A DNA stretch of 64,000 nt from an uncultured Bacteroides sp. (GTDB lineage Bacteria > Bacteroidota > Bacteroidia > Bacteroidales > GCA-2748055). This document shows, piece after piece, positions 3,212-42,225 of this stretch. The notes under the pieces are model-generated. The model was given only the letters and a program-made list of their open reading frames with translations. It was not told the origin of the DNA and made no database searches. A program made the position numbers and the translations under genes. Location: the NCBI GenBank assembly GCA_964601975.1, contig CAZRPW010000002.1, positions 2,152 through 66,151 of the forward strand, written 5' to 3'. Position 1 is the first letter of the stretch. Every line of letters starts with the position of its first letter.

Positions 3212-3284
3212 TTTTTGTGTGTTTGATTTATGGATACAATCTTACGAAAAACTTAGATGCATATAAACTGTTGTAAAATATTTG

Positions 3285-4418
3285 CTATTTGGGAGCCAGC
3301 CTGAATAAAAAGAAGGCAATCACTAAAAAACAGAGATTCGGAAGCCAAACCGCTGCCATCACCGGTAGCATCCCTCCTATTGCAAACTGTTTGGAGAATT
3401 GCTGAAACAATATGAAGGAGAAACTAATAACCACCCCCAGGGCAATCTGCAAACCGATTCCTCCTCTCATTTTCCGGGATGATACTGCGACCCCGATAAG
3501 TGTCAGAATAAACATTGAAAAGGGGAAGGCTATTCTGTTCTGCCGTTCAATCTGGTAAGCTTTTACATTGGTTTCACCCTGCATGAGCTGCTGATCAATA
3601 AACGCATCCAGCTCCTTTAGGCTCATGGTCTCCACGATACTCAGGCGTCTCTGAAAGTCGTCCGGATGAATGGCCAGGGTAGTGTCGATCATCTTCCCCT
3701 CCTCCAGGGTTTCGACCAGACCGTCAATTGTGCGTATATAGTAACGCCTGGCCTGCCACTTGTCTATGGCAGTATCCCACCTGATCTGGTCTGCAAACAT
3801 CTTTGATACCAATTCGCCATCCTCAAATTTCTCAATTGTGAAATTGTATCCCACCTTGGATACATTACTGTAATTCTGCAAGTATATGTATACGCCCGGC
3901 TCGATTTGCCTGTGAAAATCCTTGGTTTTGAATTTGACAGGCCTCTTCCGCACATAGGTCTCCTCGAAATCAAGCTTTACCTTATTGGCATCCGGAATTA
4001 CCTGGTCACTCAGGTAGAATGCCAGGGCGGCAATCAGGAAAGCTGAAAGCATATAGGGGCGCAAGAATCGCTTGAAGCTCATACCACTGTTCAGAATGGC
4101 AATAATCTCTGTATTATATGCCATCCTTGAGGTAAAATAAATAACCGCAATAAATGCAAACAGGGAAGAGAACAGCACTGCAAAATAGGGTATGAAATTG
4201 AGATAATAGTCAAATACGATCTCATGTATTCCAGCGCCGCTCTCAATAAAATCGTCAATTTTCTCCGAGAGATCGAAAATTACTGCAATAGACAGGATCA
4301 GAACAATGGACAGAAAGAAAGTCCCAAGGAACTTCCGGATCACATAGAGATCCAGGATTTTCAGCCCAAGCGCCCTTACAATCTTGTGCTTAAGGCTGGT
4401 ATCATCTTTTCTTTCCAT
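3285..4418 (-). CDS. LptF/LptG-family LPS export permease
   Basis: 377 aa. The N-terminus LKILDLYVIRKFLGTFFLSIVL is typical of the YjgP/YjgQ family. The topology is 3 TM, a periplasmic beta-jellyroll region, then 3 TM. The start overlaps the tgt stop by 43 nt. Confidence 0.8.
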   Translation of the reverse strand: MERKDDTSLKHKIVRALGLKILDLYVIRKFLGTFFLSIVLILSIAVIFDLSEKIDDFIESGAGIHEIVFDYYLNFIPYFAVLFSSLFAFIAVIYFTSRMAYNTEIIAILNSGMSFKRFLRPYMLSAFLIAALAFYLSDQVIPDANKVKLDFEETYVRKRPVKFKTKDFHRQIEPGVYIYLQNYSNVSKVGYNFTIEKFEDGELVSKMFADQIRWDTAIDKWQARRYYIRTIDGLVETLEEGKMIDTTLAIHPDDFQRRLSIVETMSLKELDAFIDQQLMQGETNVKAYQIERQNRIAFPFSMFILTLIGVAVSSRKMRGGIGLQIALGVVISFSFILFQQFSKQFAIGGMLPVMAAVWLPNLCFLVIAFFLFRLAPK

Positions 4419-5589: not shown

Positions 5590-6732
5590 ATGGATCTGAA
5601 ACTATTAATTGAAAGCACCGGGGTACCTGAATGGATCCTGCTTGCGCTGTTTTTAATCACCCTGGTGATACAGTGTGTATATTACCTCGGTATATACATC
5701 AGGCTGGCGTTGTTCAAACCAGGCGAAAGCAAGCTAAGCAGCAAGGGAGTATCAGTGATTATATGCGCCCGGAACGAAGCCGAAAACCTAAAAAAATTCC
5801 TGCCCCTGATCCTGGCCCAGGATTATCCCGAATTTGAGGTGGTGGTTGTAAATGATTGCTCCACCGACCAAAGTGAAGCTTTGCTATCGGAAATGAAAGT
5901 TCAGCATCAGAATCTCCGCTTCACCAACATCCCTGTAAATGAAAAATTCACCCACGGGAAAAAACTGGCCCTCACCATTGGCTTAAAAGCAGCCAAATAT
6001 GAGCATGTAGTGCTTACCGACGCCGATTGTTACCCTGCAGGAAAAATGTGGCTTCAGTCCATGGCCGGAAAACTTGAAGGAGAAAAAGATATTGTTCTGG
6101 GCTATGGAAGATACGAAAGACAAAAAGGCATGCTGAACAGCATTATCCGCTATGAAACGGCTTTCACAGCTTTGCAGTACTTTTCTTTTGCCCTGAAAGG
6201 GAAACCTTATATGGGAGTGGGAAGAAACCTTGCCTATCGGAAAGCGCTGTTTTTTCAAAATAAAGGTTTTTCGAGCCACTACCACATTGCTTCGGGCGAC
6301 GATGATCTTTTTGTGAACCAGAATGCTGTAAAAAGCAATACCTCTATCGTTTTCGGTGCAGAGGGCCATACGATTTCCCTTCCAAAAAAGAAGACGGGAG
6401 CATGGATCCGGCAGAAACGGCGACACCTCGCTGCCGGAACACTTTACAGTAAAGGTTCCCGGTTCAGACTGGGAACAGAACTTATAAGCAGGATTCTCTT
6501 TTATTCCTCATTTATTTTACTGGCAGCACTGAGTTCCTGGCTATGGCCTGCAGTAATACTGTTCGTGGTATTTCAGATCATCAGGCTGATCATTTTCAAA
6601 CTGGGGATGATGCGTTTGACTGAAAAATATTTATTACTACCTTCGCTCATTCTTGACCCCTTGTTACCGCTTATTTTGGGAATCATTTGGGTCACTAATT
6701 TTTTTATAACTAAAAAACAACCATGGAGTTAA
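5590..6732 (+). CDS. Family 2 glycosyltransferase with N- and C-terminal TM segments
   Basis: The GT-A signature is VSVIICARNEAENL...VVVVNDCSTDQS plus the DxD-like LTDADCYP. Hydrophobic helices lie at both ends. I chose the ATG at 5590. Confidence 0.8.
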   Translation: MDLKLLIESTGVPEWILLALFLITLVIQCVYYLGIYIRLALFKPGESKLSSKGVSVIICARNEAENLKKFLPLILAQDYPEFEVVVVNDCSTDQSEALLSEMKVQHQNLRFTNIPVNEKFTHGKKLALTIGLKAAKYEHVVLTDADCYPAGKMWLQSMAGKLEGEKDIVLGYGRYERQKGMLNSIIRYETAFTALQYFSFALKGKPYMGVGRNLAYRKALFFQNKGFSSHYHIASGDDDLFVNQNAVKSNTSIVFGAEGHTISLPKKKTGAWIRQKRRHLAAGTLYSKGSRFRLGTELISRILFYSSFILLAALSSWLWPAVILFVVFQIIRLIIFKLGMMRLTEKYLLLPSLILDPLLPLILGIIWVTNFFITKKQPWS

Positions 6733-7328
6733 ATTCCAATCTTTCGCTGAAAGCGCAACAAGATATGGAACTGGTGGAAAAAGCCAGAAAGGGAGATCAA
6801 CTTGCCTATGGAGAACTTCTGGGCAGGTACAGAGATGCCATATACTTCATGTTGCTTAAAATGGTAAACAGTCCGGTGGATGCAGAAGACCTGACCATCG
6901 AAGCATTCGGGAAAGCCTTTAAAAACATTGATCAGTACACCCCCAACTATGCATTCTCCACCTGGCTTTTCAAAATTGCAACCAATAACTGTATCGATTT
7001 TATCCGGAAGAAAAGAGCCAGTCATGTTTCTCTCGACCAGACCCTGAACGGAGAAGATTCTCTTGCTCCTTCATCAATGATTCAGTCCGATGCGCCGGAC
7101 CCTGAATTAACGATGATCAACCAGCAGAAAATCAAACATATGCGCAACGTGGTTTCAAAACTGAAGCCCCGCTATCGCCAACTGGTTGAACTGCGGTATT
7201 TCAAGGAGTACTCCTATGATGAGATTGCTTCAGAACTTGACATTCCCATCGGGACTGTCAAGGCTCAGCTTTTCAGAGCCCGGGAACTACTCCTGAACAT
7301 CCTCAACCGCTCAAAGGAAAAGCCATAA
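6723..7328 (+). CDS. ECF-type RNA polymerase sigma-70 factor (no adjacent anti-sigma gene)
   Basis: Region 2 reads YGELLGRYRDAIYFMLLKMV...FSTWLFKIATNNCIDFIRK. The region 4 HTH reads YSYDEIASELDIPIGTVKAQLFRAR. The start overlaps the GT2 stop by 10 nt. Confidence 0.85.
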   Translation: MELNSNLSLKAQQDMELVEKARKGDQLAYGELLGRYRDAIYFMLLKMVNSPVDAEDLTIEAFGKAFKNIDQYTPNYAFSTWLFKIATNNCIDFIRKKRASHVSLDQTLNGEDSLAPSSMIQSDAPDPELTMINQQKIKHMRNVVSKLKPRYRQLVELRYFKEYSYDEIASELDIPIGTVKAQLFRARELLLNILNRSKEKP

Positions 7329-7331
7329 TTC

Positions 7332-7949
7332 ATGGAATTGATCCGGAAATACTTTCCCCGGCTCGACGCTACCCAGGAGAGACAGTTTAGTAAACTTATC
7401 GAGGTCATCCCCACCCTGAATCAACAGGTAAATGTAATCTCCAGAAAGGATATTGAACACCTCGAAGAGCGACACATTCTTCACTCCCTTTCCATTGCCA
7501 AAAAGTTCACTTTTGAGCCCAATCAAACCGTCGTTGATGTGGGAACGGGTGGTGGCTTCCCTGGCATTCCACTTGCAATCCTGTTTCCAAAGACCCGCTT
7601 CATCCTGGTGGATTCCATCGGCAAAAAGATCAGGCTTGTTGATGAAGTATCTTATGCCCTGGAATTAAAAAACGTCAGGGCTCTTCACCAACGGGCAGAA
7701 AGCCTGGGCGGCTCTGCAAACTTTGTGGTATCAAGGGCTGTAAGTGCTTTCCCTAAGCTTCACGAGTGGACCTGGCGTTTGATCAAACCAGGCAGGGGCC
7801 AGGAGATGAATGGCCTGATCGCATTGAAAGGGGGCGATCTTGAAACGGAGTTGAGCCCATTCAGAAAAAAAGTGAAAATATTTCCCATATCGGACTGCTT
7901 CGAAGAGTCGTTTTTTTCAACAAAAGCTATTGTATATCTAAAAAAATGA
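7332..7949 (+). CDS. rsmG: 16S rRNA (guanine527-N7)-methyltransferase RsmG
   Basis: 205 aa. The SAM-binding motif VVDVGTGGGFPGIPLAI and the GidB-like N-terminus (NVISRKDIEHLEERHILHSL) are present. Confidence 0.9.
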   Translation: MELIRKYFPRLDATQERQFSKLIEVIPTLNQQVNVISRKDIEHLEERHILHSLSIAKKFTFEPNQTVVDVGTGGGFPGIPLAILFPKTRFILVDSIGKKIRLVDEVSYALELKNVRALHQRAESLGGSANFVVSRAVSAFPKLHEWTWRLIKPGRGQEMNGLIALKGGDLETELSPFRKKVKIFPISDCFEESFFSTKAIVYLKK

Positions 7950-7979
7950 CTACTTTTGCACCCTCAAAACACGATTGTT

Positions 7980-8138
7980 ATGAAGAGGACATTTCAGCCA
8001 TCAAACAGGAAAAGAAAGAATAAACACGGGTTCAGAGAGCGCATGGCAACAGCCAGCGGTCGCGGTGTTATTGCGAAGCGCAGAGCGAAAGGCCGTAAGA
8101 AACTTACAGTTTCTGATGAGCCCAGGCACAAAGCATAA
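7980..8138 (+). CDS. rpmH: 50S ribosomal protein L34
   Basis: [44 protein letters not shown] is the near-universal L34 sequence. The ATG is at 7980. Confidence 0.95.
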
Positions 8139-8165
8139 AGTTTTTTAGTACTGTACAAAGAATAA

Positions 8166-8197
8166 TAACTAACCGGAATCCGGTTGGTTATTTTTTT
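8166..8197 (+). terminator. Rho-independent terminator after rpmH
   Basis: TAACTAACCGG-AAT-CCGGTTGGTTA forms an 11-bp stem with one G.U pair. It is followed by TTTTTTT at 8191-8197. Confidence 0.7.
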
Positions 8198-8253
8198 GCC
8201 CTGACTTTAGATCAGTTTTTTGTAATTTGCCAACTATTTTACCAAAGGCAAGC

Positions 8254-10956
8254 ATGGCAAAAAAGGCAGCTCATAAAAATACCAGCCCAGATATTCAGTT
8301 TCTCCTCCCGGATCAGGAACCAGATTCTCAATCCATCGGGCACCTCTCCGCTTTCATTGAAAAGCTCAATCAGGAGCAAATCGTCCGTGCAGGTAAGAAG
8401 GACACGCTGCATGATGGCTATGTGGTGATTTTCGAATCACTCGGCATGGAACACCAGGTGAACCCCGGTGAGTTCCTCCGGCTTCCTCTTCCGGCCTCAA
8501 ACACCAGCAGGGCATACTGGGATTTTTCCTTTAGCGGAAAAAAAGGAGACGGTCTGGGAGGAATTATAGTTCCTTCCGATGTATTCAGCTACCTGCTTTC
8601 CGTACATGGACAGGAGGGATTTCCTGAAAACGGGATAAGCAGGTTGATTCTGGAAAAACTTGGATTCCGCCAGGAAAAACTGCTCATAAACCAGGAGCAT
8701 CCTTTCCCTGGCATTCAAAAATCTGTTACTCCTTTGATGGAGCGACTGAAATTGAATCTGGCCTGGAATACAGTCCTCCCCCTTAAAGAAACGCGAATCC
8801 CAGCTCTTAAACAACTCTTCTTCACCAGGGAGCACCCCCTTTTCAGGCTGGCATTCTTTGCAACTGCCATAGCCATATTCCTGATTATCCCCATTTTGAG
8901 CCTGGATGCCGGATTATCTGGCGATGATGAAAAACACTATCAGCATGCAGAAAAGGTCTATCGCTATTTCGCGGAAGATGACCCGGCTGCACTGAACGAC
9001 CCGCAGCATAAACTCAACTTTTACGGCCAGTCCTTTGATTTTTTCACCTACATGGTGATCCGTTTTTTCGGAATTGAGTCACCCTATGAAGCCCGGCATA
9101 TCATGGTGGCACTTGCAGGTGCGGCAGCCATTCTTTTCACGGGTCTGTTTGTCAAACTGTTTTCGGGGTACTCGGGCGGATTGCTGGCAATGATCCTGAT
9201 GTTCCTTTCTCCCAGGTTCCTGGGCCATGCTTTCAATAACCCCATGGATATCCCCTTCGCCCTGGGAAACATTTTCACCCTTTATCATATGGTGAAGTTT
9301 CTTTTGAAACTACCCAGAATCAGTATCCGCTCAGCCATCTGGATAGCCTTGGGCATAGGATTTACAAATGGGATCAGGATTGGGGGACTCCTGCTGGTTC
9401 CCTACCTCTTTTTATTTGCCGGGCTCTACCTGCTGATTCATAAATGGCCCTGGAAATTTTTCTCCGCACTCTGGTGGAAATTTGCCCTCAGGGGGATGGC
9501 TACGCTTATCCTGATCTCCCTGTCAGGGTATATACTGAGCCTGCTTACCTGGCCCTACGCGCTTCAGGATATCATCAACCATCCCATCAAGGCTTTTAAA
9601 GTGATGTCCGATATACAGGTATCCATCAGGGTGCTTTACGACGGAGCTATTCACTGGTCCGATAATCTCCCCTGGCACTACATCCCAAAAAACATCCTAA
9701 ACACCGTACCGGCAATCATCCTGATTGGATGGCTGGCTTCGGGCTTTACCTGGTTTAAGGACCGGAAGAATGGCTTTGGCTTTTGGTATTTCATCCTGTG
9801 GTTCACCATCCTTTTCCCTGTTTTGTTTATAATTTACAGGGAATCGAATGTCTATGGAGGCTGGCGGCATATGATGTTCATCTATCCTTCAATGGTGGCA
9901 CTTTCAGCCATGGCATTGAGCAGCCTTATCAGACTTACCCCGAAGAATGGAATCCGCTATGCTGCTCTTGCTGCTTTAGCAATCGGACTATTCCATCCCC
10001 TGAGGCATATCATTCGCAACCATCCCAATACGTATATCTACTTCAATGAAATTTCAGGTGGAATAGGAAAAACATTGGGGCGTTTCGAAACGGACTACTA
10101 TACCAACAGTCTGAAACCTGCTTCAGACTATTTCATTGATTCAATACTACCTGAACTTGAAAATAAAAATGGGGAACCCATAAAAATTGTAAGCAATTTC
10201 AACATCAATTATTATTTCCGAGAGCATCCCGACCGGGTCCAGACCTCCTACAGCAGGTATTATGACAGGGGAAAATATGACTGGGATTACGCGATTCTTT
10301 ATTGTAATTACATCCACCCTTCACAGCTAAAAAATGGATTGTGGCCCCCAAAAAACACCATTCACGAGATCAAAGTGGATGATGTGGTGGTGGCGGCCAT
10401 CGTTGAAAGAAAAAACAAGGACGATTACCTGGGGTCCAAATTTCTTGCCGAAGCAATGCAAGAAATGAGCGAGGTAAAATTGAATCGTGCACTTCTGCTT
10501 CTTCAAAGTGCTGTTGAGTATGACCCAAACAATGAAATTGCCAGGCTGGAAATCGCCAACGCCTATGCAGCCTTCCTTCGCTTTGATGATGCAAGGAAAG
10601 AAATGGATGAGTTACTGGAGATTTACCCGGATTACGATAAAGCCCTGAACACCAAAGGATATACATATTTAATGGAATCGGAATACACCCGAAACCCGGC
10701 GCTTATTGATAATGCCATCCAGTACATCAACCTTGCCATAATGTCCAATTATAAATTTTATTCGGGCTATTACAACCTTGGCTTGTGTTATGGAAGAAAG
10801 GACGACAAGGCCAATGCCGAATACAATCTGAGGCAGGCCATCCATTACAATTCCAAATTTAAACAGGCCTATATTAAACTTGCCGAGCTTTACGAGCAAT
10901 ACGGAGAGGATGAAAAAGCCAGGCAGGCAAGAAGCTTCGCCAGCAGATTGCCCTGA
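8254..10956 (+). CDS. Polytopic membrane protein with a GT-C (family 39/PMT-like) glycosyltransferase core, C-terminal TPR repeats and an unassigned ~190-aa N-terminal cytoplasmic domain
   Basis: About 12 hydrophobic helices span residues ~200-600. The first loop carries an acidic motif (LSLDAGLSGDDEKHYQHAEKVY), as in the GT-C DE/DD motif. The C-terminus carries TPR-like repeats (AEAMQEM..LLLLQSAVEYDPNN, YPDYDKALNTKGY, YYNLGLCYGRKDDKANAEYNLRQAIHYNSKFKQAYIKLAELY). I chose the ATG at 8254. Confidence 0.65.
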   Translation: MAKKAAHKNTSPDIQFLLPDQEPDSQSIGHLSAFIEKLNQEQIVRAGKKDTLHDGYVVIFESLGMEHQVNPGEFLRLPLPASNTSRAYWDFSFSGKKGDGLGGIIVPSDVFSYLLSVHGQEGFPENGISRLILEKLGFRQEKLLINQEHPFPGIQKSVTPLMERLKLNLAWNTVLPLKETRIPALKQLFFTREHPLFRLAFFATAIAIFLIIPILSLDAGLSGDDEKHYQHAEKVYRYFAEDDPAALNDPQHKLNFYGQSFDFFTYMVIRFFGIESPYEARHIMVALAGAAAILFTGLFVKLFSGYSGGLLAMILMFLSPRFLGHAFNNPMDIPFALGNIFTLYHMVKFLLKLPRISIRSAIWIALGIGFTNGIRIGGLLLVPYLFLFAGLYLLIHKWPWKFFSALWWKFALRGMATLILISLSGYILSLLTWPYALQDIINHPIKAFKVMSDIQVSIRVLYDGAIHWSDNLPWHYIPKNILNTVPAIILIGWLASGFTWFKDRKNGFGFWYFILWFTILFPVLFIIYRESNVYGGWRHMMFIYPSMVALSAMALSSLIRLTPKNGIRYAALAALAIGLFHPLRHIIRNHPNTYIYFNEISGGIGKTLGRFETDYYTNSLKPASDYFIDSILPELENKNGEPIKIVSNFNINYYFREHPDRVQTSYSRYYDRGKYDWDYAILYCNYIHPSQLKNGLWPPKNTIHEIKVDDVVVAAIVERKNKDDYLGSKFLAEAMQEMSEVKLNRALLLLQSAVEYDPNNEIARLEIANAYAAFLRFDDARKEMDELLEIYPDYDKALNTKGYTYLMESEYTRNPALIDNAIQYINLAIMSNYKFYSGYYNLGLCYGRKDDKANAEYNLRQAIHYNSKFKQAYIKLAELYEQYGEDEKARQARSFASRLP

Positions 10957-33410: not shown

Positions 33411-34337
33411 TTAGCTTACAGAAAACTTTATCCCGGTGAGCTCCTCTGACAGCTCCCATAGTTTCATGGCTGCGTCCGGAGTTACCCTTTTGGGATCAGG
33501 CTTTTCAGGAGATGGCCAGCCCTTCATGCGAAGCATCCCCGAGGGACCATAAAATGCGCCCTGTTCAACATCGGCTGCAGTGGCAGCATAGAGAGAGGGC
33601 AGGGCGCCCATCTCGCCTGACTGCGCAATGAAGCGGTTGGCCAAATTAAAAAAATCAGCCTTCTTTTTTGATCCTGCCATTAACATTCCTTTGGCCTGCA
33701 GGGAGGTATCCGCATATCCGGGATGTGCTGCTGCAACAGTCACGACAGAACCTGACTCCTTCAGCTTCCCCGCCAGTTCCATTGTAAAAAGCAAGCTCGA
33801 TAGTTTACTCATACCATAGGCTCCCCATTTGCTATAAGCCTGTTCCCAGTTTATATCAAAAAACCTCATCTTTCCGAATCGGTGGGCAAGGCTGCTCACA
33901 TTTACGATCCGGGCTCCCTTTCTGTCTCTCATCCCCTTCCAGAGCAGAGCGGTCAGTGCAAAATGCCCGAGGTAGTTCACCCCAAACTGCATTTCAAAAC
34001 CATCTTCTGTTTTCAGATAGGGAATGGCCATTAGTCCGGCATTGTTGATTAGCAGCTCAGGCCCCTCGTTGCCGGAAAGGTAAAGTTGTGCAAAAGCCTT
34101 TACCGATGAGAGGCTGGAAAGATCCAGCTCCCATAATTCCGGCTCAACTTCCGGATTAAATTCCAGAATTTTCTGCCTGGCCAGCTCACCCTTCTCCAGG
34201 TTTCTGCATGCCATAATCACCCTTGCTCCCTTTTGAGCAAAGGCAAGGCTTGTAAAAAATCCCAAACCGCTGTTTGCGCCTGTAATCACTACTCTTTTCC
34301 CCTGCTGTGTTGGCATATTCTCCCTGGTCCACTTCAT
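33411..34337 (-). CDS. Short-chain dehydrogenase/reductase (SDR)
   Basis: The cofactor-binding motif is VVITGANSGLG and the catalytic motif is YGMSK (YxxxK). I chose the ATG at 34337. The 76-codon upstream extension in the track overlaps the next gene's start and is probably not translated. Confidence 0.85.
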   Translation of the reverse strand: MKWTRENMPTQQGKRVVITGANSGLGFFTSLAFAQKGARVIMACRNLEKGELARQKILEFNPEVEPELWELDLSSLSSVKAFAQLYLSGNEGPELLINNAGLMAIPYLKTEDGFEMQFGVNYLGHFALTALLWKGMRDRKGARIVNVSSLAHRFGKMRFFDINWEQAYSKWGAYGMSKLSSLLFTMELAGKLKESGSVVTVAAAHPGYADTSLQAKGMLMAGSKKKADFFNLANRFIAQSGEMGALPSLYAATAADVEQGAFYGPSGMLRMKGWPSPEKPDPKRVTPDAAMKLWELSEELTGIKFSVS

Positions 34338-34443
34338 ATTTGTATAATTTAAATTCAAAAAAACAGATGATCCGATGGGGTAAACACGGTCCACATGCAT
34401 CTTCAATGTAAAGAGTCTGAAATTAGTACAAATCTTACACATC

Positions 34444-35736
34444 ATGAAAAGCACTATGAGAATAAAAGGAGGCGGACTGCTGGCAGGATTACTCATGCTG
34501 AGTACAACGGCCCTGGCCTTACCCCGAATCGAAGAAGAGTTTACCGACACCCTCAATTTTGACACCTACAATGGTCTTGTGGTAGATATGGTAAACAGTC
34601 GTAACCTGCCCTTTGCCACCATTGAAGCTATAGGGAGCAATGTGGCAACTGTCTCAAATATTGATGGCGAGTTTATAATTAAAATAGCCAAAGACTCGAA
34701 GGTCTCGGAACTAAAAATCTCCTACATTGGATTTGCCAATGAAATCGTTTCCCTCTCAGATTTCAAAGAAAATCGAGCCAAAATAATCGGCATGAAACCA
34801 AGCGCTGTTCAATTGAAAGAAATTACGATCCGGCCACAGGATGCCCTGGAACTTATGGTGGATGTTCTCGCAAATATCCGTGAAAACTACAGTGTGGATC
34901 CAATGATGATGAGGGGATTCTATCGTGAAACCATCCAGAGAGGCAAGAACTATGCATCCATTTCAGAAGCGGTGGTTGATATATTTAAAGGAAGTTATGT
35001 AAATGATTTCCAGATAGACCAGGTAAAACTATTCAAAGGCAGGAAGAGCGCCGACGTAGAAAAGATGGATACTGTTTTGTTCAAGGTACAGGGCGGTCCA
35101 AGCACCACCATTTTACTGGATGTGGTAAAAAATCCTTACATCCTTCTATCGTCAGATTATGGCGACATCTACGATTTCAACCTGAGCGATGTAATTAGCA
35201 TTGATGACCAGCTTCACTATGTGGTTTCATTTAACCAGAAAGAACACATATCGGAGCCCTATTATAATGGCCGATTTTATATTGACATGGAGAAACTTGC
35301 CATTACAGAAGCTGTATTTGAATTAAATACCGAGAATGAGGAAGAGGCTGCCCGTCTCTTTATCCAGAGAAAACCCATGGGCATGAGCATCATTCCTGAA
35401 AAAGCAGCCTACCGCGTAAAATATACAGTGGAGGATAATCGCTGGTATTTCCGCTACGCCAGGGCAGAGGTCAAATTTAAGGTAAGCTGGAAAAAGAAAC
35501 TCTTTAACACTACCTACTCCACCATGTCGGAGTTGGCAATTACAGACCGAACCTATGAAGGCATTGAGAAATTCTCCGGGAAAGAACGATTCAGGACAAA
35601 CGATGTGATGAATGATAAGGTATTCACTTTCTTCGACCAGGGATTCTGGGAAGGATATAACGTCATAGAACCCGACCAATCGATCGAGAGTGCCATCAAG
35701 CGACTGAATCGCAAATACCTGAAGAGAAACGGTTAA
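34444..35736 (+). CDS. Carboxypeptidase-regulatory-like domain protein (unknown function), STN-less paralog of 37389..38921
   Basis: A signal peptide is present. The CarboxypepD_reg-like module reads VVDMVNSRNLPFATIEAIGSNVATVSNIDGEFIIKI. The C-terminal ~300 aa are clearly homologous to 37389..38921 (RGFYRETIQRGKNYASISEAVVDIFKGSY versus TAYYRESVKRNEHCMLFSEAVLNVAKGPY). Confidence 0.6.
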   Translation: MKSTMRIKGGGLLAGLLMLSTTALALPRIEEEFTDTLNFDTYNGLVVDMVNSRNLPFATIEAIGSNVATVSNIDGEFIIKIAKDSKVSELKISYIGFANEIVSLSDFKENRAKIIGMKPSAVQLKEITIRPQDALELMVDVLANIRENYSVDPMMMRGFYRETIQRGKNYASISEAVVDIFKGSYVNDFQIDQVKLFKGRKSADVEKMDTVLFKVQGGPSTTILLDVVKNPYILLSSDYGDIYDFNLSDVISIDDQLHYVVSFNQKEHISEPYYNGRFYIDMEKLAITEAVFELNTENEEEAARLFIQRKPMGMSIIPEKAAYRVKYTVEDNRWYFRYARAEVKFKVSWKKKLFNTTYSTMSELAITDRTYEGIEKFSGKERFRTNDVMNDKVFTFFDQGFWEGYNVIEPDQSIESAIKRLNRKYLKRNG

Positions 35737-35752
35737 GCCTATATATAGATTG

Positions 35753-35820
35753 AAGCGCTGTCTCCCGATTTGTGTAACTTTACCGTCCACTTACAGCACA
35801 TGCAGAGACAGCGCTTTTTA
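35753..35820 (+). terminator. Long-loop hairpin with a short T-tract between the paralog gene and the ECF sigma gene
   Basis: AAGCGCTGTCTC (35753-35764) pairs with GAGACAGCGCTT (35805-35816), a perfect 12-bp stem with a 40-nt loop. It is followed by TTTTA. Confidence 0.45.
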
Positions 35821-35829
35821 TAAAAACCC

Positions 35830-36381
35830 ATGATCCTGAAAGAACAACATCAGCTGAGAAAGATCAGGAAGGGGGATATCGCTTCCTTCGAGAAGCTTTT
35901 CTTCAGTTTCTATCCCGGCCTTCTAAAATATTCAGAGCGCCTGGTTCGAAAGGCCGAGATTGCAGAAGAAGTTGTTCAGGATGTGTTCTACAATGTATGG
36001 AAAAACAGGGAATCAATAAGAATCACCCATACCTGGAAAAGCTACCTCTTTCGATCGGTATATAACAATTCGATGATGTACCTGAGAAAAACACGCAGAG
36101 AAGTAAGCCTGGAGGAGGGACTTTTCCTTGAAAAGGAAGGAAGTGCTCCCAATCCCATCGAGGAACTTGAATTTAACGAGACTTCAGCTATGATTGCGGA
36201 TACAGTAAACAGTTTGCCCAAAAGAACACGGGAAATTTTCCTGATGAACAGGCATGAAGGTTTGAAATACAGGGAAATTGCAGAACAGCTTTCGATATCT
36301 GTAAAAACGGTTGAAGCGAATATGGGTAAAGCACTGAAGGCTTTGAGAAAAAGCCTGGAGAAATATGGAGAAGAACAGTGA
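35830..36381 (+). CDS. ECF-type RNA polymerase sigma-70 factor
   Basis: Region 2 reads FEKLFFSFYPGLLKYSERLV...VQDVFYNVWKNR. Region 4 reads LKYREIAEQLSISVKTVEANMGKALKALR. Confidence 0.85.
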   Translation: MILKEQHQLRKIRKGDIASFEKLFFSFYPGLLKYSERLVRKAEIAEEVVQDVFYNVWKNRESIRITHTWKSYLFRSVYNNSMMYLRKTRREVSLEEGLFLEKEGSAPNPIEELEFNETSAMIADTVNSLPKRTREIFLMNRHEGLKYREIAEQLSISVKTVEANMGKALKALRKSLEKYGEEQ

Positions 36382-36383
36382 GC

Positions 36384-37379
36384 ATGAAAAAAAATAAGAT
36401 CTGGATCTCCATGGCCAGGTACCTTGCCGGTGAAATGGAGACGAAAGAGGAGATTGAATTCAGAAAGAGGTCTGATTGTGACCTCGATCTGCAAAAAGAA
36501 TTAAAGCAAATGGAAAAGAGCTGGACATACTATGGTAATCAGGCATCTCCCGAAGATGATGATTTACAAAATGCATGGAGAAATCTGCAGCAGCGGCTTG
36601 AAGTCGACGGTCTGCTCGACCCTTCCCATTCATCACCAGGAATACGAAGCAAAGCCAGCAGTCTGAAGATCGCCGCTTCCATCCTGCTGGCACTAGCCAT
36701 CGGCATTCCATCCCTCTGGTATGGAGTGATCCGCAACAAGGAAAATCCATCCACAATACAGCACTTCTCCGAGAAGGGTGTCAGCACCATCGACCTCCCC
36801 GACGGAAGCCGTGTTTACCTGAATGAAGGATCCGGAATCAGCTACCCGGAAAGCTTTGACCAGGGCCGAAGAATTAAACTCGACGGGGAAGCATTTTTTG
36901 AGGTCATGTCCAACCCGGCCAGCCCCTTTACTGTCAGATCCGGGCAGGTAACTGTATCTGTCCTCGGAACCTCTTTCAATGTAAAAAGGGGGGACAGGCA
37001 GGAGGACATTGAGGTGTTCGTGAAAACCGGAAAAGTAAGAATGTTTTTGGAAGATCCGGATGAATTCATCACCCTCGAACCTGGCGATCTGGGCAGGGCC
37101 AAAGAATCAACGCTTTCCCTCCTGGAACAATCCGATCCGAATTATATTTCATGGAAAACAAAAGATTTTAAATTTGTAGACGAAGAACTTGGTAAAGTCC
37201 TCCGTGAACTTGAAGAATCATACCATGTGAAAATTCGTGCCGAAGGAGTCCAATTGAGCGAGTTAAGGATTACATCTGCCTACAGCGAGCAATCTATTGA
37301 TGCTATTCTGGAAACCATTGGTGCAGCTTTCGGTCTGAATGTTCAAAAAAAGGAGGAGCTTTACCACCTGACACCATAA
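36384..37379 (+). CDS. FecR-family anti-sigma factor/sensor
   Basis: The N-terminal anti-sigma segment is followed by one TM (IAASILLALAIGIPSLWYGV). The FecR periplasmic motifs are IDLPDGSRVYLNEGSGISY, LDGEAFFEV and VSVLGTSFNV. I chose the ATG at 36384; the GTG at 36378 overlaps the sigma stop. Confidence 0.85.
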   Translation: MKKNKIWISMARYLAGEMETKEEIEFRKRSDCDLDLQKELKQMEKSWTYYGNQASPEDDDLQNAWRNLQQRLEVDGLLDPSHSSPGIRSKASSLKIAASILLALAIGIPSLWYGVIRNKENPSTIQHFSEKGVSTIDLPDGSRVYLNEGSGISYPESFDQGRRIKLDGEAFFEVMSNPASPFTVRSGQVTVSVLGTSFNVKRGDRQEDIEVFVKTGKVRMFLEDPDEFITLEPGDLGRAKESTLSLLEQSDPNYISWKTKDFKFVDEELGKVLRELEESYHVKIRAEGVQLSELRITSAYSEQSIDAILETIGAAFGLNVQKKEELYHLTP

Positions 37380-37388
37380 AAGTAGCCC

Positions 37389-38921
37389 ATGAGGCCCGGC
37401 CTGGCACTTCTTCTGCAAATTCTATTCCTGTCGGCTCCCCTGAGCCTGACCGGTCAGGATGCTATTCCTGACCTTCAAATTACCCTTAGCCCAAAGACCA
37501 GGACTGTGAACCAGGTTCTTGAGGAAATTACCCTTCAGAGCGGCTACTATTTCACCTATAATTCAGCACTGATCGCCGGAAGGGAACGAATCCGTATTGG
37601 CTTCAATGACATTGGCCTGAAGGAAGCACTTGACAGCCTGTTTCAGGACCCGGCACTCGGTTACAGAGTAGTTGAACGAAACATTGTTATTTTCAAGAAA
37701 AACGATCAGCCCGCCTTTCCGGTCCTTCCGGAAATAGGCCGAACCCTCATCAGGGGAAGGGTGATAGACAGCCGCTCTGGCAAAGCGCTCCCCTATGCGA
37801 CCATCGCGCTCTACGGAACCTCCCTGGGATCCATAAGCAACGAATCTGGCATCTTCTCATTCAAGATCCCGTCCGATCTAAATGATCCCTTCCTTGTCAT
37901 TTCATATATGGGATACAAAAATATGTTACTGCCGGTAAGCTACCCCGTGGAGCAGGAACTGAACATAGAAATGAATCGTGAGACCATTCCGCTCCAGGAG
38001 GTTATAATCAGGTATTCCGATCCGGTTAAGATTCTCAGTGAAGCCATCAGCAGAATTCCCAAAAACTACCTGCAGGAACATTCCGAGATGACGGCCTACT
38101 ACAGGGAATCTGTAAAAAGAAATGAACACTGCATGCTTTTTTCTGAAGCGGTTCTCAATGTGGCAAAGGGACCCTACTCAGATTTTGGCAGCGAAGATCA
38201 GGTTAGCATCCAGAAAGGGAGAAAAATCAGTGATCTCTCCAATGAAGACACCGTCATCATTAAGCTTCGCTCCGGAATCAAGGCATCATTTGAGCTGGAC
38301 ATCATAAAAAACAGGCCCGATTTCCTGGGGGAAAAATTCCTGGACTATTATGACCTGGAATTCACCGATATGATGAGCTATGGAGAGAGGCTTGTCTACG
38401 TCATCAGCTTCCGGCAAAAAAGTATGATTCCACAGTTGATGTTTCTGGGAAGGATTTATATTGACCAGGAAAACCTGGCCATCATTGCAGCCGATTTTGA
38501 ATTCAACCCACAATTGATCCAAAATGATCCGGGCTTGTTCCTGGTCAGCCGCTCTCCCCGGGTAAGGATCCGTCCGCTACTGGCAAGATATCATGTGGAT
38601 TACAGGCAAATAGCGGGGGTATTTCACGTAAGCCAGGTAAGGGCGGAGGTGGAGATGAAGGTCAGGAAGCGCAGGCGGTGGATCGGCGCAAAATACCGCA
38701 TCGCCATTGAGATGGCCATCACTGATGTGATTCCCGGTGAACGCATCCGGATCGCCCCTTCGGAAAGAGTAAAGCCAAATACGGTTTTGGCCGATCAACC
38801 CTTCGATTTTGCGCCCGACTTCTGGGGCATCTATAACACCATTGAGCCGGAAGCGACTCTGCAGGAATCGCTCAGCAAGATTGAACACAGCATCCAGGAG
38901 ATCAGGCATGACCAGGAGTAA
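37389..38921 (+). CDS. STN domain plus carboxypeptidase-regulatory-like domain protein lacking a TonB-dependent plug or barrel
   Basis: A signal peptide is present. The STN-like module reads TVNQVLEEITLQSGYYFTYNSALI...IGLKEALDSLFQDPALGYRVVERNIVIFKK. The CarboxypepD_reg module reads IRGRVIDSRSGKALPYATIALYGTSLGSISNESGIFSF. The remaining ~300-aa domain is shared with 34444..35736. The total length of 510 aa is too short for a TBDT barrel. Confidence 0.65.
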   Translation: MRPGLALLLQILFLSAPLSLTGQDAIPDLQITLSPKTRTVNQVLEEITLQSGYYFTYNSALIAGRERIRIGFNDIGLKEALDSLFQDPALGYRVVERNIVIFKKNDQPAFPVLPEIGRTLIRGRVIDSRSGKALPYATIALYGTSLGSISNESGIFSFKIPSDLNDPFLVISYMGYKNMLLPVSYPVEQELNIEMNRETIPLQEVIIRYSDPVKILSEAISRIPKNYLQEHSEMTAYYRESVKRNEHCMLFSEAVLNVAKGPYSDFGSEDQVSIQKGRKISDLSNEDTVIIKLRSGIKASFELDIIKNRPDFLGEKFLDYYDLEFTDMMSYGERLVYVISFRQKSMIPQLMFLGRIYIDQENLAIIAADFEFNPQLIQNDPGLFLVSRSPRVRIRPLLARYHVDYRQIAGVFHVSQVRAEVEMKVRKRRRWIGAKYRIAIEMAITDVIPGERIRIAPSERVKPNTVLADQPFDFAPDFWGIYNTIEPEATLQESLSKIEHSIQEIRHDQE

Positions 38922-38963: not shown

Positions 38964-40211
38964 ATGAAATCCCTGGTGTATATTTTTAGCCTCCTGATGA
39001 TTGGGAGTATTTCTCACGGTCAAACGGCGAGGGTCGTGGGCTACTTACCCACTTATCGATTTAACACAAGCGCTCAGATCGAGTACTGTAAACTGACACA
39101 TTTAAACCTGGCTTTTGCCAATCCGGATAGTGCCGGAAATCTTCAAATACCAGATTATACAACAGTTGTTTCGGATGCTTTGAGTGATAACCCTGCTATA
39201 ATTATCTGCATATCACTGGGTGGTGCAGGCCTAACAAGCGCACAAAAAAGCGCTTGGTCCAACTTCATTGATATCCCTTCCAATCGACCCGCATTTATTA
39301 GCAGCATCGTTGAATACGTGCTGGCCAATCAACTGGATGGAGTAGATATGGACCTGGAATGGGATGATGTCACATCCGGTTATAGTGATTTTATTACTGA
39401 GCTGGATACAGCTTTAAATACACACGACAAACTCCTTACGGTAGCCTTCCCAAACCACACGCTTTACAGCCATGTTTCCAGGGAAGCTCTAGACGCTTTT
39501 GATTTCATCAATATCATGGCATACGATGCCACCGGACCATGGAACCCCTCTTCTCCCGGCCAGCATAGTTCTCTTAACTTTTCCTCGAAATGCATCAACT
39601 TTTGGAAAAATACTGCCGGGGTTTCAGGAAACAAACTGACCCTTGGTGTTCCCTTCTATGGCTATGATTTTGTGAGTCCCTCACTTGCAAATGCTGTCAC
39701 CTATGCCCAAATGGTAAATAGCAATCCTTCCTATGCTGATTTAGATACTGTTGGAAATATTTATTATAATGGCAGGCCAAGCATTGAATCAAAAGTCATT
39801 CTTGCGAACAGTGAAGTTTCAGGAATCATGATCTGGGAAATTGGTCAGGATTCATTCGATGAATATTCCCTGCTCACCACCATTCATAACAAGTATACCT
39901 CGCTGGGTATAACAACAACAGGCCTTTGTGGAAATGAAAATGCATTGTCAGGCATCGAGCCAGAATGCCATAAGCACTGTAAAATATATCCTAATCCGGC
40001 TCATGGTTTTTTAACAATTAAAGATCCCGCAAAAGAACCTTCAAAAATCATAATTACAAATTCTTCGGGACAATTTATCAATATTGATGCAATATCAAAT
40101 CATACAGATGAGTGGCACATAGATGTGTCAAAATTTCAAAAAGGACTTTATTTTATTAAAATTGTAAGCAAGGATGATGTCCTGGAAATACATAAAATAA
40201 TGGTGATATAA
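38964..40211 (+). CDS. Glycoside hydrolase family 18 (chitinase/endo-beta-N-acetylglucosaminidase-like) with a T9SS C-terminal sorting domain
   Basis: The GH18 catalytic motif DGVDMDLEW (DxxDxDxE), INIMAYD, and the C-terminal KIYPNPAHGFLTIK...GLYFIKIVSK are present. Confidence 0.85.
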   Translation: MKSLVYIFSLLMIGSISHGQTARVVGYLPTYRFNTSAQIEYCKLTHLNLAFANPDSAGNLQIPDYTTVVSDALSDNPAIIICISLGGAGLTSAQKSAWSNFIDIPSNRPAFISSIVEYVLANQLDGVDMDLEWDDVTSGYSDFITELDTALNTHDKLLTVAFPNHTLYSHVSREALDAFDFINIMAYDATGPWNPSSPGQHSSLNFSSKCINFWKNTAGVSGNKLTLGVPFYGYDFVSPSLANAVTYAQMVNSNPSYADLDTVGNIYYNGRPSIESKVILANSEVSGIMIWEIGQDSFDEYSLLTTIHNKYTSLGITTTGLCGNENALSGIEPECHKHCKIYPNPAHGFLTIKDPAKEPSKIIITNSSGQFINIDAISNHTDEWHIDVSKFQKGLYFIKIVSKDDVLEIHKIMVI

Positions 40212-40624
40212 TGGAAAAAGAATCGGCCGAAAGGATGGAGAAACTTGTCAGGCAAAAGCTTGAAGGGAAGAGTTACACCGAAATCAGGGCAGAGCTGAAA
40301 GCATCCGGAATGTCATCCGAAGAAATCGCCGCGCTCATCAGAGAAGTCGATGAAAAGGTCTTGCAGGAGGCAGTGAAGGAAGGAACTCCGGAGAAGTCAA
40401 TGCAATGGTACAGAGGCGGACTGGTACTGGCAGTTCTGGGACTGCTCCTCACCATTGCATTTAATGTGGGGCTTATTCTGAAAAACGTCCATCCATTAGT
40501 GGTTTACGCCCCCTTTATCGCAGGAATTCTCCTGATGTTCTATGGAAGGATGATGCAGCGCCGCCAGCCTGAAAAGAAAAAAGAGGGTACGGGAGCCATT
40601 CGAAGGAAAAGACCCTTTAAATGA
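40211..40624 (+). CDS. Hypothetical membrane protein (two TM helices, basic tail)
   Basis: A charged helical N-terminus is followed by LVLAVLGLLLTIAFNVGLIL and VVYAPFIAGILLMFYG. No family was recognised. Confidence 0.45.
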   Translation: MEKESAERMEKLVRQKLEGKSYTEIRAELKASGMSSEEIAALIREVDEKVLQEAVKEGTPEKSMQWYRGGLVLAVLGLLLTIAFNVGLILKNVHPLVVYAPFIAGILLMFYGRMMQRRQPEKKKEGTGAIRRKRPFK

Positions 40625-40634
40625 GAGAAGAGCT

Positions 40635-41273
40635 ATGGTAGAAGAGATTGTAAAAAAGAGATTCCCATTTTTTGAATCGGGACTAAGGGATGCCATCATG
40701 GAAGAAGGCACCTACAGGAAATTTGCTGCCGGTGAGGAGTTGATGCGTGAGGACCAGTTTATCCGTTCATTTCCAATTGTCATATCAGGCCTGATCAAGG
40801 TCTGCCGGACCGATGAGGCCGGCAATGAACTGCTCCTCTACTACCTGCGGCCGGGTGAGGTCTGCACCGTAACCCTGATCTGCTGCATGGACCGCACCCG
40901 TAGCCGCGTCAAAGCAATTGCCGAGGAGAAGACTGAGGCAATCCTTGTTCCGGTGGAACTGCTGGACAGCTGGATGACCGAATACCAGACCTGGAAGGAA
41001 TATGTAATGCATTCCATGCAGAAACGTTTCGACGAATTACTGGATGCCCTCGACAGTATTGCATTTCTGAAAATGGATGAACGGCTCGAGAAATTTTTCA
41101 CCGATCGCTATAAATCTACCGGAACAAGCCTCTACGAGGGCTCTCACCAGGATGTTGCACAGGCCATGAACAGCTCCCGTGAAGTGATCTCCCGCTTACT
41201 GAAACAAATGGAGAAAAAGGGGATGGTTTTTCTTTCCAGGGGCCGCATCGATTACTCCCCCCTTTGTGACTAA
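40635..41273 (+). CDS. Crp/Fnr-family transcriptional regulator
   Basis: A cNMP-binding-like beta-roll (GEELMREDQFIRSFPIVISGLIKV...LLYYLRPGE) and a C-terminal HTH (SHQDVAQAMNSSREVISRLLKQMEKKGMV) are present. Confidence 0.8.
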   Translation: MVEEIVKKRFPFFESGLRDAIMEEGTYRKFAAGEELMREDQFIRSFPIVISGLIKVCRTDEAGNELLLYYLRPGEVCTVTLICCMDRTRSRVKAIAEEKTEAILVPVELLDSWMTEYQTWKEYVMHSMQKRFDELLDALDSIAFLKMDERLEKFFTDRYKSTGTSLYEGSHQDVAQAMNSSREVISRLLKQMEKKGMVFLSRGRIDYSPLCD

Positions 41274-41328
41274 AGTTACTGTATAATTCTTTCCTCCTTG
41301 TTTTCTTTGCCACCTATATTATTTGCAA

Positions 41329-41904
41329 ATGAAAACAGTTCAGGTAAAATCATATAGTGAATTAGAAAGCCTTGTTTCCGGGCCAGAACGCTCGATCCTG
41401 CTCCTTTACAAAGCTGGGAGTGAACAGAGTGAATGTGCTCTGAAGCGCATCTGTAAACTGGATTCCGAAAAGGAACAGTCTGTTCTTACGTCCGATGTAA
41501 GTACCGTTCGAGACATCCATGGAAAATTGGGTGTTGACACAGTCCCCAGCCTGGTCATATTAAACCACCATAAGGTGGTGAATATCATCAAAGGCTGTCA
41601 GACCGAATCCTCCTATCATTCACTTATTTCGGGAAGACAGTTAGGCTCCAGTCCTTCTGCAAAAGGAAAAGCGAAACAGGTAACCGTCTACTCCACTCCT
41701 ACTTGCTCGTGGTGCACCACACTGAAAACTTATCTTGACAGTCAAAAAATCTCCTACCGGGAGATCAATATTGCTTCAGATACTTCAGCTGCGGAAGCCA
41801 TGGTAAGGAAGAGCGGCCAGCAGGGGGTACCCCAGACAGAAATAAACGGACAGATGATCGTGGGTTTTAACAAAGCCAGGATTAATCAGCTCCTTGAGAT
41901 ATAA
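41329..41904 (+). CDS. Thioredoxin-fold protein: N-terminal Trx-like domain without CxxC fused to a C-terminal glutaredoxin-like (YruB/NrdH-type) domain
   Basis: The C-terminal domain reads VTVYSTPTCSWCTTLKTYLDSQKISYREINI...GVPQTEINGQMIVGF, with a CSWC active site. The N-terminal ~100 aa have Trx-like secondary-structure periodicity (VPSLVILNHHKVV). Confidence 0.65.
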   Translation: MKTVQVKSYSELESLVSGPERSILLLYKAGSEQSECALKRICKLDSEKEQSVLTSDVSTVRDIHGKLGVDTVPSLVILNHHKVVNIIKGCQTESSYHSLISGRQLGSSPSAKGKAKQVTVYSTPTCSWCTTLKTYLDSQKISYREINIASDTSAAEAMVRKSGQQGVPQTEINGQMIVGFNKARINQLLEI

Positions 41905-41943
41905 TGAGTTCGACTCGTTTAGTAAACCTAAAAACAATTAAAA

Positions 41944-42225
41944 ATGAAAGAGTTACAGCCAATTAATCAACATGTGCTTCTTGAATTGGAAGCCTCAGAA
42001 GAGAAAACTGCTTCAGGTATCATTATACCGGATACCGCCCAACAAAAACCAATCTTTGCCAAGGTACTGGCATTAAGCGGGATCGAAGATCCTGAGATCT
42101 CAGTAGGCGATGTGGTTTTTTATAAGAATTTTTCAGGCACTGAACTGGAATTTGACGGACGGAATTTCTTAATGATGCCCTATGCCGATATTCTCGGACG
42201 TGTTGTAGAGACCGATAAAATCTAA
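41944..42225 (+). CDS. GroES-family co-chaperonin paralog (no adjacent groEL)
   Basis: LQPINQHVLLELEASEEKTASGIIIPDTAQQKP...VGDVVFYKNFSGTELEFDGRNFLMMPYADILGRV aligns along its full length with the Cpn10 pattern. Confidence 0.75.
   Translation: MKELQPINQHVLLELEASEEKTASGIIIPDTAQQKPIFAKVLALSGIEDPEISVGDVVFYKNFSGTELEFDGRNFLMMPYADILGRVVETDKI

Follow-up and report, generated by a model that had tools for sequence, protein, structure and literature searches.

A barrel-less STN-domain protein with a predicted LolA/RseB-like domain is encoded beside FecR in a conserved ECF sigma factor operon of Bacteroidales

In a 64,000-nt stretch of DNA from an uncultured Bacteroides sp. of the Bacteroidales (assembly GCA_964601975.1, contig CAZRPW010000002.1), the genes for an extracytoplasmic function (ECF) sigma factor of FecI-like type and a FecR anti-sigma factor are followed by a gene for a 510-aa protein that combines an STN signalling domain with a C-terminal domain that is neither plug nor barrel. 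We call this whole stretch the window, and all coordinates are window-based unless a related locus is named. Cell-surface signalling (CSS) is defined by a TonB-dependent transporter (TBDT) that doubles as sensor, and the STN domain is known from textbooks as a mark of these transporters and of secretins. We consider it likely that the 510-aa protein is the STN partner of FecR and that it fills this place without being a TBDT. The initial annotation of the window had proposed a signalling input of this kind; the exclusion of a transporter has held up, while the unit proved larger than had been noted, since an STN-less paralog, a promoter-like motif and the likeness to LolA had been missed.

The unit is a four-gene operon (34377-38921, promoter-like motif included), and all of its features lie on the + strand. 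The ORF listing shows four co-directional genes in tandem, encoding proteins of 430, 183, 333 and 510 aa. These are the STN-less paralog as first gene of the operon (34444-35736), the ECF sigma factor of the Bacteroidetes FecI-like type (35830-36381), the FecR anti-sigma factor (36378-37379) and the STN-bearing protein (37389-38921), the last three exactly where the initial annotation had placed them. The sigma and fecR reading frames overlap by 4 nt, and 9 nt separate fecR from the 510-aa gene. We assign all four genes to one operon because in a distant clade only 0-17 nt lie between the paralog stop codon and the sigma factor start. In the window, the order of elements is an ECF-type promoter-like motif, the 430-aa gene, a terminator-like hairpin, sigma, FecR and the 510-aa gene, and the operon is probably autoregulated.

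Profile matches corroborated the sigma/FecR pair. The sigma factor matched the NCBIfam model TIGR02985 (Sig70_bacteroi1; 9e-48, 162.5 bits vs a cut-off of 126.4) and also the Pfam families Sigma70_r2 and Sigma70 r4_2. FecR matched PF04773 (3e-15, 56.9 bits, residues 134-221) and PF16344 FecR_C (1.1e-8, 35.5 bits, residues 264-325), both above the Pfam cut-offs, and its layout comprises a cytoplasmic N-terminal region, one transmembrane helix (~residues 96-118), the periplasmic FecR domain and the STN-like FecR_C domain. Within the motif LGTSFN, the dipeptide Gly197-Thr198 was invariant in 56/56 orthologs, and it corresponds to the site of self-cleavage in E. coli FecR, between Gly181 and Thr182 (PMC12036975). 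In E. coli, TonB acting on FecA frees the FecR C-terminal fragment, which starts a proteolytic cascade (PMC12036975). In Pseudomonas, the signalling domain of the transducer is bound to the C-terminal STN-containing domain of the anti-sigma factor before any signal arrives, and this binding stabilises the anti-sigma factor and shields it from proteolysis (PMC7186176; PMC11637429). A FecR_C-type domain is the STN-binding part in both PupR and FoxR (PMC11637429; PMC7186176). Homology and synteny together suggest that the STN domain of the 510-aa protein contacts FecR in the same manner.

From the N-terminus, the 510-aa protein consists of a signal peptide, the STN domain, a CarboxypepD_reg domain of the kind that forms the N-terminal extension (NTE) of SusC, a TonB-box-like strand, a LolA/RseB-like domain and a tail. 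The signal peptide, read from the sequence (residues 1-22; 37389-37454) and recognised as such in the initial annotation, has no lipobox cysteine and would be cleaved between ...LTG and Q. Across the family, the residue at -1 is A, S or G and the residue at +1 is Gln in 39/53 members, a pattern that fits the 'Q-rule' of Bacteroidetes signal peptidase I, whereby Gln stands at +1. A Pfam search found no Por_Secre_tail match, the sorting domain of the type IX secretion system (T9SS), in the 510-aa protein, unlike in the neighbouring GH18 protein. Because lipobox, barrel and T9SS tail are all lacking, the simplest reading is that the protein is retained in the periplasm, where it would be soluble or peripherally associated.

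The STN signalling domain (residues ~30-104; 37476-37700) was assigned from profile matches in homologs, the structure model and Foldseek. The peptide quoted for it in the initial annotation covers residues 39-104. In the query itself, PF07660 reached 17.1 bits (E = 0.0048, residues 54-104), under the gathering score of 28.4 bits. The same profile matched 27/53 diverse homologs at E <= 0.01 (best 3e-11), and in P0121, which is 45% identical to the query, the score was 38.7 bits, above the gathering score. Two genuine STN-bearing TBDTs encoded in the related locus L059 likewise gave just 20-23 bits; since these are undisputed transporters, a low score is normal for this Bacteroidota subtype, which Pfam under-calls. 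The domain was modelled as two beta-alpha-beta units (residues 30-103, pLDDT 83-95), and Foldseek matched it to the signalling domains of FpvA and FoxA and to secretin N0 domains. In a four-way alignment, query residues 1-210 were collinear with the L059 TBDTs through the STN and CarboxypepD_reg domains. The presence of an STN domain, sub-threshold in the query, is established at the family level. The two L059 transporters (1707-4400 (-) and 8011-10674 (+) of that locus) have the domain order STN, CarbopepD_reg_2, Plug, which is the order given in the initial annotation and opposite to the wording of PMC7782687, where the NTE precedes the STN domain; one of them also matches FecR_C (7e-8) over its STN region.

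The CarboxypepD_reg domain (residues ~118-199; 37740-37985), also named in the initial annotation, matched PF13715 CarbopepD_reg_2 at 1.9e-14 (53.9 bits vs a gathering score of 32.2, residues 121-207). It was modelled as a seven-strand Ig-like domain (residues 118-195), and Foldseek superposed it on the NTE of SusCdex (9hfj) with a TM-score of 0.87 and a root-mean-square deviation of 1.8 Å. A profile search of the PDB sequences matched the NTE regions of SusC and RagA structures, together with weak STN relatives, and found no relative of the C-terminal domain.

Beyond this point the likeness to transporters ends. Neither Plug nor TonB_dep_Rec matched the 510-aa protein in Pfam, and the SusC/RagA model TIGR04056 scored 34 bits against a cut-off of 368, matching only its positions 3-83 of 981, which represent the NTE. 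The structure was modelled from close homologs (pLDDT 73) and a second time from 53 representatives of 26-45% identity (pLDDT 85, pTM 0.77); the second model contains no closed barrel. As modelled, the 510-aa protein certainly has neither plug nor closed barrel, in agreement with the initial annotation, which excludes both a place as a transporter in the outer membrane and any import.

The homology to TBDTs stops right after a TonB-box-like strand, IPLQEVIIRY, which lies in a flexible linker (residues 200-209; 37986-38015) with pLDDT <50 at residues 202-205. This strand is among the best conserved segments in the family (motif [IV]-[SP]-[IL]-Q-E-V-I-I-R), with E204 present in 49/53 members, R208 in 46/53 and V or I at positions 205-207 in ~50/53. 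Its counterparts in alignments are LNEVVVSTS in 9gbc, a TBDT of known structure, and 'VELDEIVIRERAP' and 'IELTEITVFGERP' in the L059 TBDTs, where these motifs occupy the TonB-box position and the plug follows directly. In Bt1763, the Ton box DEVVVTG stands behind the NTE, is unstructured and is needed for function (PMC7782687). The domain content of the 510-aa protein shows that it is not a transporter; it does not show that it is TonB-independent, because a TonB-box-like strand is conserved at the very position where transporters have their TonB box.

In the place of plug and barrel, residues ~210-450 (38016-38738) were modelled as a helix and, after it, an antiparallel sheet that is long and strongly curved, with pLDDT mostly 85-98. 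Foldseek searches of the PDB matched this domain to the DUF1329 LolA-like protein 4z48 (2e-7), P. gingivalis LolA3 (9tp6; 9e-7), the LolA-superfamily protein NE2245 (3buu; 5e-6) and RseB (2p4b; 6.5e-5), and also to the sheets with which MTP, lipovitellin and ApoB bind lipid; in the first model, the matches to RseB and MucB stood at ~3e-6. TM-scores for the LolA-like domain were low (~0.39), and we assign a LolA/RseB-superfamily-like fold with moderate confidence from the predicted structure. The initial annotation had described an unrelated domain of ~300 aa here, to which the predicted fold gives relatives. Neither LolA_like (PF17131) nor MucB_RseB matched the query, and LolA_like was found in one of the 53 homologs (0.003) and in P0205 (0.0065). 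DUF5686 (PF18939) did not match the query either and was seen weakly in 4/53 homologs (best 1e-5), which points to a distant kinship at most. The C-terminal region contains the invariant residues R239, E240, E253, D304, Y401 and W479. The last of these belongs to the C-terminal tail (residues 451-510; 38739-38921), delimited by conservation and the model, in which a poorly ordered stretch with the conserved motif FWG..N.I.PE is followed by a terminal polar helix (residues 491-509). P0205, at 901 aa, has two matched stretches, as if its C-terminal domain had been duplicated in tandem; its weak LolA_like match falls at residues 701-752.

The architecture is that of a large family. A word-indexed search gave 357 matches, and the best 120 of these 357 were nearly all 493-519 aa long, with precomputed STN and CarboxypepD_reg assignments. 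An exhaustive search of 50%-identity representatives gave ~443 clusters at E <= 1e-30; the best 150 of these ~443 were mostly 490-540 aa and aligned from about residue 10 of the query. All named sources were metagenome-assembled genomes of Bacteroidales or Bacteroidota, the distant members likewise all derive from metagenomes, and the product names were 'hypothetical' or 'carboxypeptidase-like regulatory domain-containing protein'.

The survey of FecR neighbours proposed in the initial annotation was carried out on one genome per GTDB species (79 loci). Counting the STN-type homologs with at least 1 kb of upstream sequence (32-74% identity), FecR lay directly upstream in 54/54 loci; the pairing of FecR with the short STN protein is far beyond chance. 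The complete order of 430-type paralog, sigma, FecR and 510-type protein was present in 48 loci. Among seven further members that were looked up (26-37% identity), the FecR arrangement recurred in five and two were orphans. P0298, P0204, P0160, P0148 and P0193, at 28-32% identity, belong to the same module, and in L084, at 26% identity, FecR ends 1 nt before the family member. In L087, the contig breaks off within the first gene.

The 430-aa protein at the head of the operon has a signal peptide, an NTE (CarbopepD_reg_2, 3.7e-10 in Pfam), a TonB-box-like LKEITIR and a LolA-like domain, and it has no STN domain. With residues 123-498 of the 510-aa protein it shares 33% identity (E = 6e-64). A paralog of this type stands upstream of sigma in the 48 loci and also in L080, L085, L086 and L088. 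In the Flavobacteriaceae (L059-L079), the STN-less form stands alone, with neither sigma nor FecR, and this occurrence without a regulator suggests that the working form was ancestrally STN-less and that the 510-aa protein is a sensor derivative that gained an STN domain. The surroundings of the STN-less form in L059 (two TBDTs, Nramp and a short-chain dehydrogenase) gave no firm functional clue, nor did those in the Flavobacteriaceae as a group. A gene for a class A penicillin-binding protein (PBP)-like product of ~747 aa directly follows the STN-less form in 10/21 Flavobacteriaceae loci (in L063, for example, at 6001-7146 and 7231-9474 of that locus), which may be a sign of a role in the cell wall or envelope, or may just reflect shared ancestry.

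Two conserved non-coding elements frame the paralog gene. When the upstream regions of 49 loci were aligned, the sole conserved block was aTAGGGTA-N13-GCATCT, with CGGTCA in a distant clade, ~40-65 nt ahead of the start codon of the operon's first gene. The window copy, GGGGTA-N14-GCATCT, lies at 34377-34402. A regex scan found the motif at the expected position in nearly every locus with sufficient flank, including L080, whose 510-aa homolog is 30% identical, and L081, while second copies within the window were chance-level matches only. The two-block layout and the position ahead of an ECF operon suggest that the motif is the sigma factor's own autoregulated promoter, and it is a candidate for the sequence that this ECF sigma subgroup recognises. 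In the window, the short-chain dehydrogenase ORF on the opposite strand (33411-34565 (-)) overlaps the start of the 430-aa gene, although its homologs align only from about residue 77 of the ORF as called. The call therefore overruns by ~76 codons, and the true divergent intergenic region is ~100 nt long and holds the promoter-like motif.

Between the paralog and sigma genes lies a terminator-like hairpin (35752-35820), identified by folding and covariation, with a 13-bp stem (35752-35764 with 35805-35817), a 40-nt loop that is itself conserved in sequence (TTGTGTAACTTTACC...TCCCTGTAC) and a U-run thereafter. Its minimum free energy is -25.2 kcal/mol (z = -4.7). Across 34 loci, 88% of the cells were paired and 7/13 pairs had changed on both sides, including a GC, GU, AU series; 0/500 shuffles reached the observed covariation score, and slid controls were 30-59% paired. 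The region gave no relevant Rfam match. Each locus has one copy of the hairpin, which is no dispersed repeat; it is present in the clade of the window and absent in the distant clade, where the paralog and sigma genes abut. We read it as a terminator or attenuator that would raise expression of the first gene above that of sigma, FecR and sensor, and because the paralog gene precedes it, the paralog is probably the main output of the system. A housekeeping promoter in the hairpin loop (TTTG / TAnnTTTG) was considered and dropped, as its spacing did not fit.

Set against known systems, the module shares with FecI/FecR/FecA-type CSS, including the Bacteroidetes sigma/anti-sigma/SusC-like transducers of glycan loci, the gene order of sigma, FecR and an adjacent STN protein, the FecR and FecR_C domains, the Gly-Thr dipeptide and a partner N-terminus collinear with STN-bearing Bacteroidota TBDTs. 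It differs in that the partner is not a TonB-dependent transporter and has a LolA-like domain instead of plug and 22-strand barrel, that neither SusD nor another transport gene belongs to the module, and that an STN-less paralog heads the operon. A relay in which FecR is paired with a barrel-less STN partner is a new departure within known CSS. Searches of the literature on STN with LolA, RseB or FecR, on DUF5686 and on CarboxypepD_reg with ECF gave no account of this architecture, and it goes unmentioned in the main text of the ECF reclassification paper. Bacteroidota have a further departure of their own from the three-protein scheme, which senses the envelope or the exterior: in the Dma anti-sigma factors (PMC10927553), anti-sigma factor and an 8-strand outer-membrane barrel form one fusion protein and STN is absent, whereas in the window the anti-sigma factor is a normal FecR and the novelty resides in its partner.

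RseB and MucB are soluble periplasmic LolA-like proteins that bind the periplasmic domain of an anti-sigma factor, shield it from proteolysis and are released from it by lipid or lipopolysaccharide (LPS) signals, lipid being the releasing signal for MucB. The RseB/MucB-RseA/MucA-sigma-E/AlgU systems thus share with the window a protein of LolA-like fold encoded beside an ECF sigma/anti-sigma pair, and Foldseek links the two. The window protein nevertheless stands outside the MucB_RseB sequence family, its anti-sigma factor is of the FecR and not the RseA type, docking would presumably be through an added STN domain and not the RseB C-terminal domain, and NTE and TonB-box-like elements are present. 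The best structural matches for residues ~210-450, LolA/LolB, the Bacteroidota LolA-like proteins (LolA3, 9tp6) and DUF1329, are single-domain carriers of ~200-240 aa with neither STN nor NTE and no linkage to sigma/anti-sigma genes, whereas the window domain is larger, has invariant polar residues and resembles them at modest TM-scores only.

These likenesses suggest an RseB-like periplasmic sensor that has been grafted, by way of an STN domain, onto a FecI/FecR relay, with a docking chemistry like that of FecA and FecR. The 510-aa protein would be exported by Sec, cleaved by signal peptidase I and retained in the periplasm. In the resting state, its STN domain would be docked on the C-terminal FecR_C domain of FecR, as the signalling domains of TBDTs are, and this docking would keep FecR intact and sigma sequestered. 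The LolA/RseB-like domain would be the sensor part. It could be triggered when a hydrophobic envelope molecule (a lipid, an LPS-type molecule or the acyl moiety of a lipoprotein) is loaded, or when the TonB-box-like strand is engaged, or possibly by both. The trigger would disturb the contact between STN and FecR, whereupon FecR, which has kept the Gly-Thr self-cleavage dipeptide, would be degraded by regulated proteolysis and sigma freed. The freed sigma factor would drive the promoter-like motif and mostly the STN-less paralog would be made, which would probably handle the same ligand and reset the system in a homeostatic loop. We hold this full mechanism to be only slightly more probable than not, and the hydrophobic nature of the ligand is a much less secure element of it. 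A single locus, L086, encodes a FadL/Toluene_X-type outer-membrane channel for hydrophobic compounds (6655-7965 (+) of that locus) directly downstream of the 510-type gene, which is compatible with a hydrophobic ligand.

Several observations weigh against the mechanism as a whole. The invariant polar residues of the C-terminal region are unusual for a plain lipid pocket and might point to catalysis or to a polar ligand such as a glycan or peptide. The window copy of the promoter-like motif is off consensus, with G for A and a spacer of 14 instead of 13 nt, and the motif scan of the window revealed no regulon member beyond the operon itself. Two family members, P0272 and P0227 (L082 and L083, the latter a short contig), have no FecR nearby, and the carriers are all uncultured, hence no phenotype is at hand. 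The signal could also depend on energy from TonB, a refinement that is compatible with the sensor reading and that we regard as possible but doubtful: a TonB homolog would grip both paralogs, and signalling, perhaps along with extraction or transfer of the ligand, would need TonB pull against an anchor in the outer membrane, a partner protein or FecR itself, as has been proposed for FecA-FecR. It is favoured by the conservation of E204 and R208 in the QEVIIR strand, by the position of this strand in a low-pLDDT linker aligned with the TonB boxes of 9gbc and the L059 TBDTs, by the unstructured Ton box after the NTE in Bt1763, where the NTE has been proposed to give TonB-paralog specificity (PMC7782687), and by the finding that TonB force frees the FecR C-terminal domain in E. 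coli (PMC12036975). Against this, a soluble protein offers no obvious anchor for such a pull, the strand may be a mere structural linker left over from a TBDT ancestor, and the conserved module contains no tonB or exbBD gene. Broader still, and rather unlikely in our judgement, is the idea that the STN, NTE and TonB-box modules as a set work on soluble periplasmic LolA-like proteins, with TonB pulling a barrel-less protein to trigger FecR cleavage or to drive the extraction or hand-over of a lipid or lipoprotein ligand.

The role of the 510-aa protein within the relay might also be the reverse of that of a sensor. It could be an output or feedback element, with the signal entering through FecR, the 430-aa paralog or an unlinked TBDT; its STN domain would then merely tether or titrate FecR and stabilise it, and the LolA-like domains would carry out sigma-induced handling of lipids or lipoproteins. 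Both paralogs do lie inside the putative operon of sigma itself, the STN-less form stands alone, with no regulator, in Flavobacteriaceae, which implies an autonomous function, and in Pseudomonas the effect of overproducing STN domains is simply to inhibit signalling (PMC11637429). In known FecIR systems, however, sensing falls to the STN-bearing protein whose gene adjoins fecR, and the STN form is strictly co-inherited with FecR whereas STN-less forms are free-standing, which argues that STN was acquired for signalling input and makes the output reading unlikely. That the genes are neighbours in an operon with no STN-FecR contact at all, the N-terminal module being degenerate or akin to secretin N0, or the C-terminal domain not being LolA-like in function, strikes us as highly unlikely. 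The sub-threshold score of the query, the restriction of STN matches to about half of the homologs, the secretin N0 matches and the low LolA-like TM-scores would fit this view, but the STN threshold is exceeded in close homologs, genuine TBDTs have equally low scores and collinear N-termini, FecR retains FecR_C, the STN-binding domain of PupR and FoxR, and the synteny is invariant. A truncated pseudogene of a full-length TonB-dependent transducer, which the initial annotation had argued against, is practically inconceivable. Although TBDT likeness is confined to the N-terminal 210 residues, length and all three domains are kept down to 26% identity, the C-terminal domain is well folded with invariant residues, and downstream lies a variable slot with no barrel remnant; the pseudogene reading is refuted by the conservation of length, by the fold and by the invariant residues. 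We accordingly retain a periplasmic STN-bearing sensor of FecR as the preferred reading.

Downstream of the module, a GH18 chitinase-like gene with a T9SS sorting tail (38964-40211 (+)) starts after an intergenic gap of 42 nt, and not 43 nt as first reported. The initial annotation implied a link between this gene and the module, which we reject, as no GH18 homolog was found in any of the 79 related loci and what lies between the module and the orf137/Crp pair varies, being an S9-like peptidase in 14 loci, Dxs in the distant clade and other genes elsewhere. The GH18 gene is likely a lineage-specific insertion. Further downstream (40211-42225 (+)) lie genes for a small membrane protein with a weak DUF2207_C match, a Crp/Fnr-type regulator, a thioredoxin-like/glutaredoxin fusion and a GroES-like protein, which may form a redox or stress cluster; the small membrane protein and the Crp/Fnr-type regulator are syntenic with the module in closer relatives only. 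No TBDT gene was found at or beside the module, nor among the large ORFs checked up to 44 kb, the stretch from 44 to 64 kb being unscanned.

We know of no described RseA/RseB system in Bacteroidota. A large, strictly syntenic family in which FecR is paired with a barrel-less and probably periplasmic STN protein would break the definition of CSS, and the FecI/FecR relay would prove rewirable to periplasmic or envelope cues. Bacteroidota would gain a candidate sensor of envelope-lipid stress. If TonB does act on these barrel-less proteins, they would constitute a TonB-energised periplasmic system for envelope surveillance or lipid handling that has its own sensor paralog and no counterpart in Proteobacteria. 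With four genes, one promoter and one hairpin, the module would also provide a compact test bed for the role of the SusC NTE and Ton box in the absence of a barrel, and it would give a function to hundreds of clusters now labelled only 'carboxypeptidase-like regulatory domain-containing protein'.

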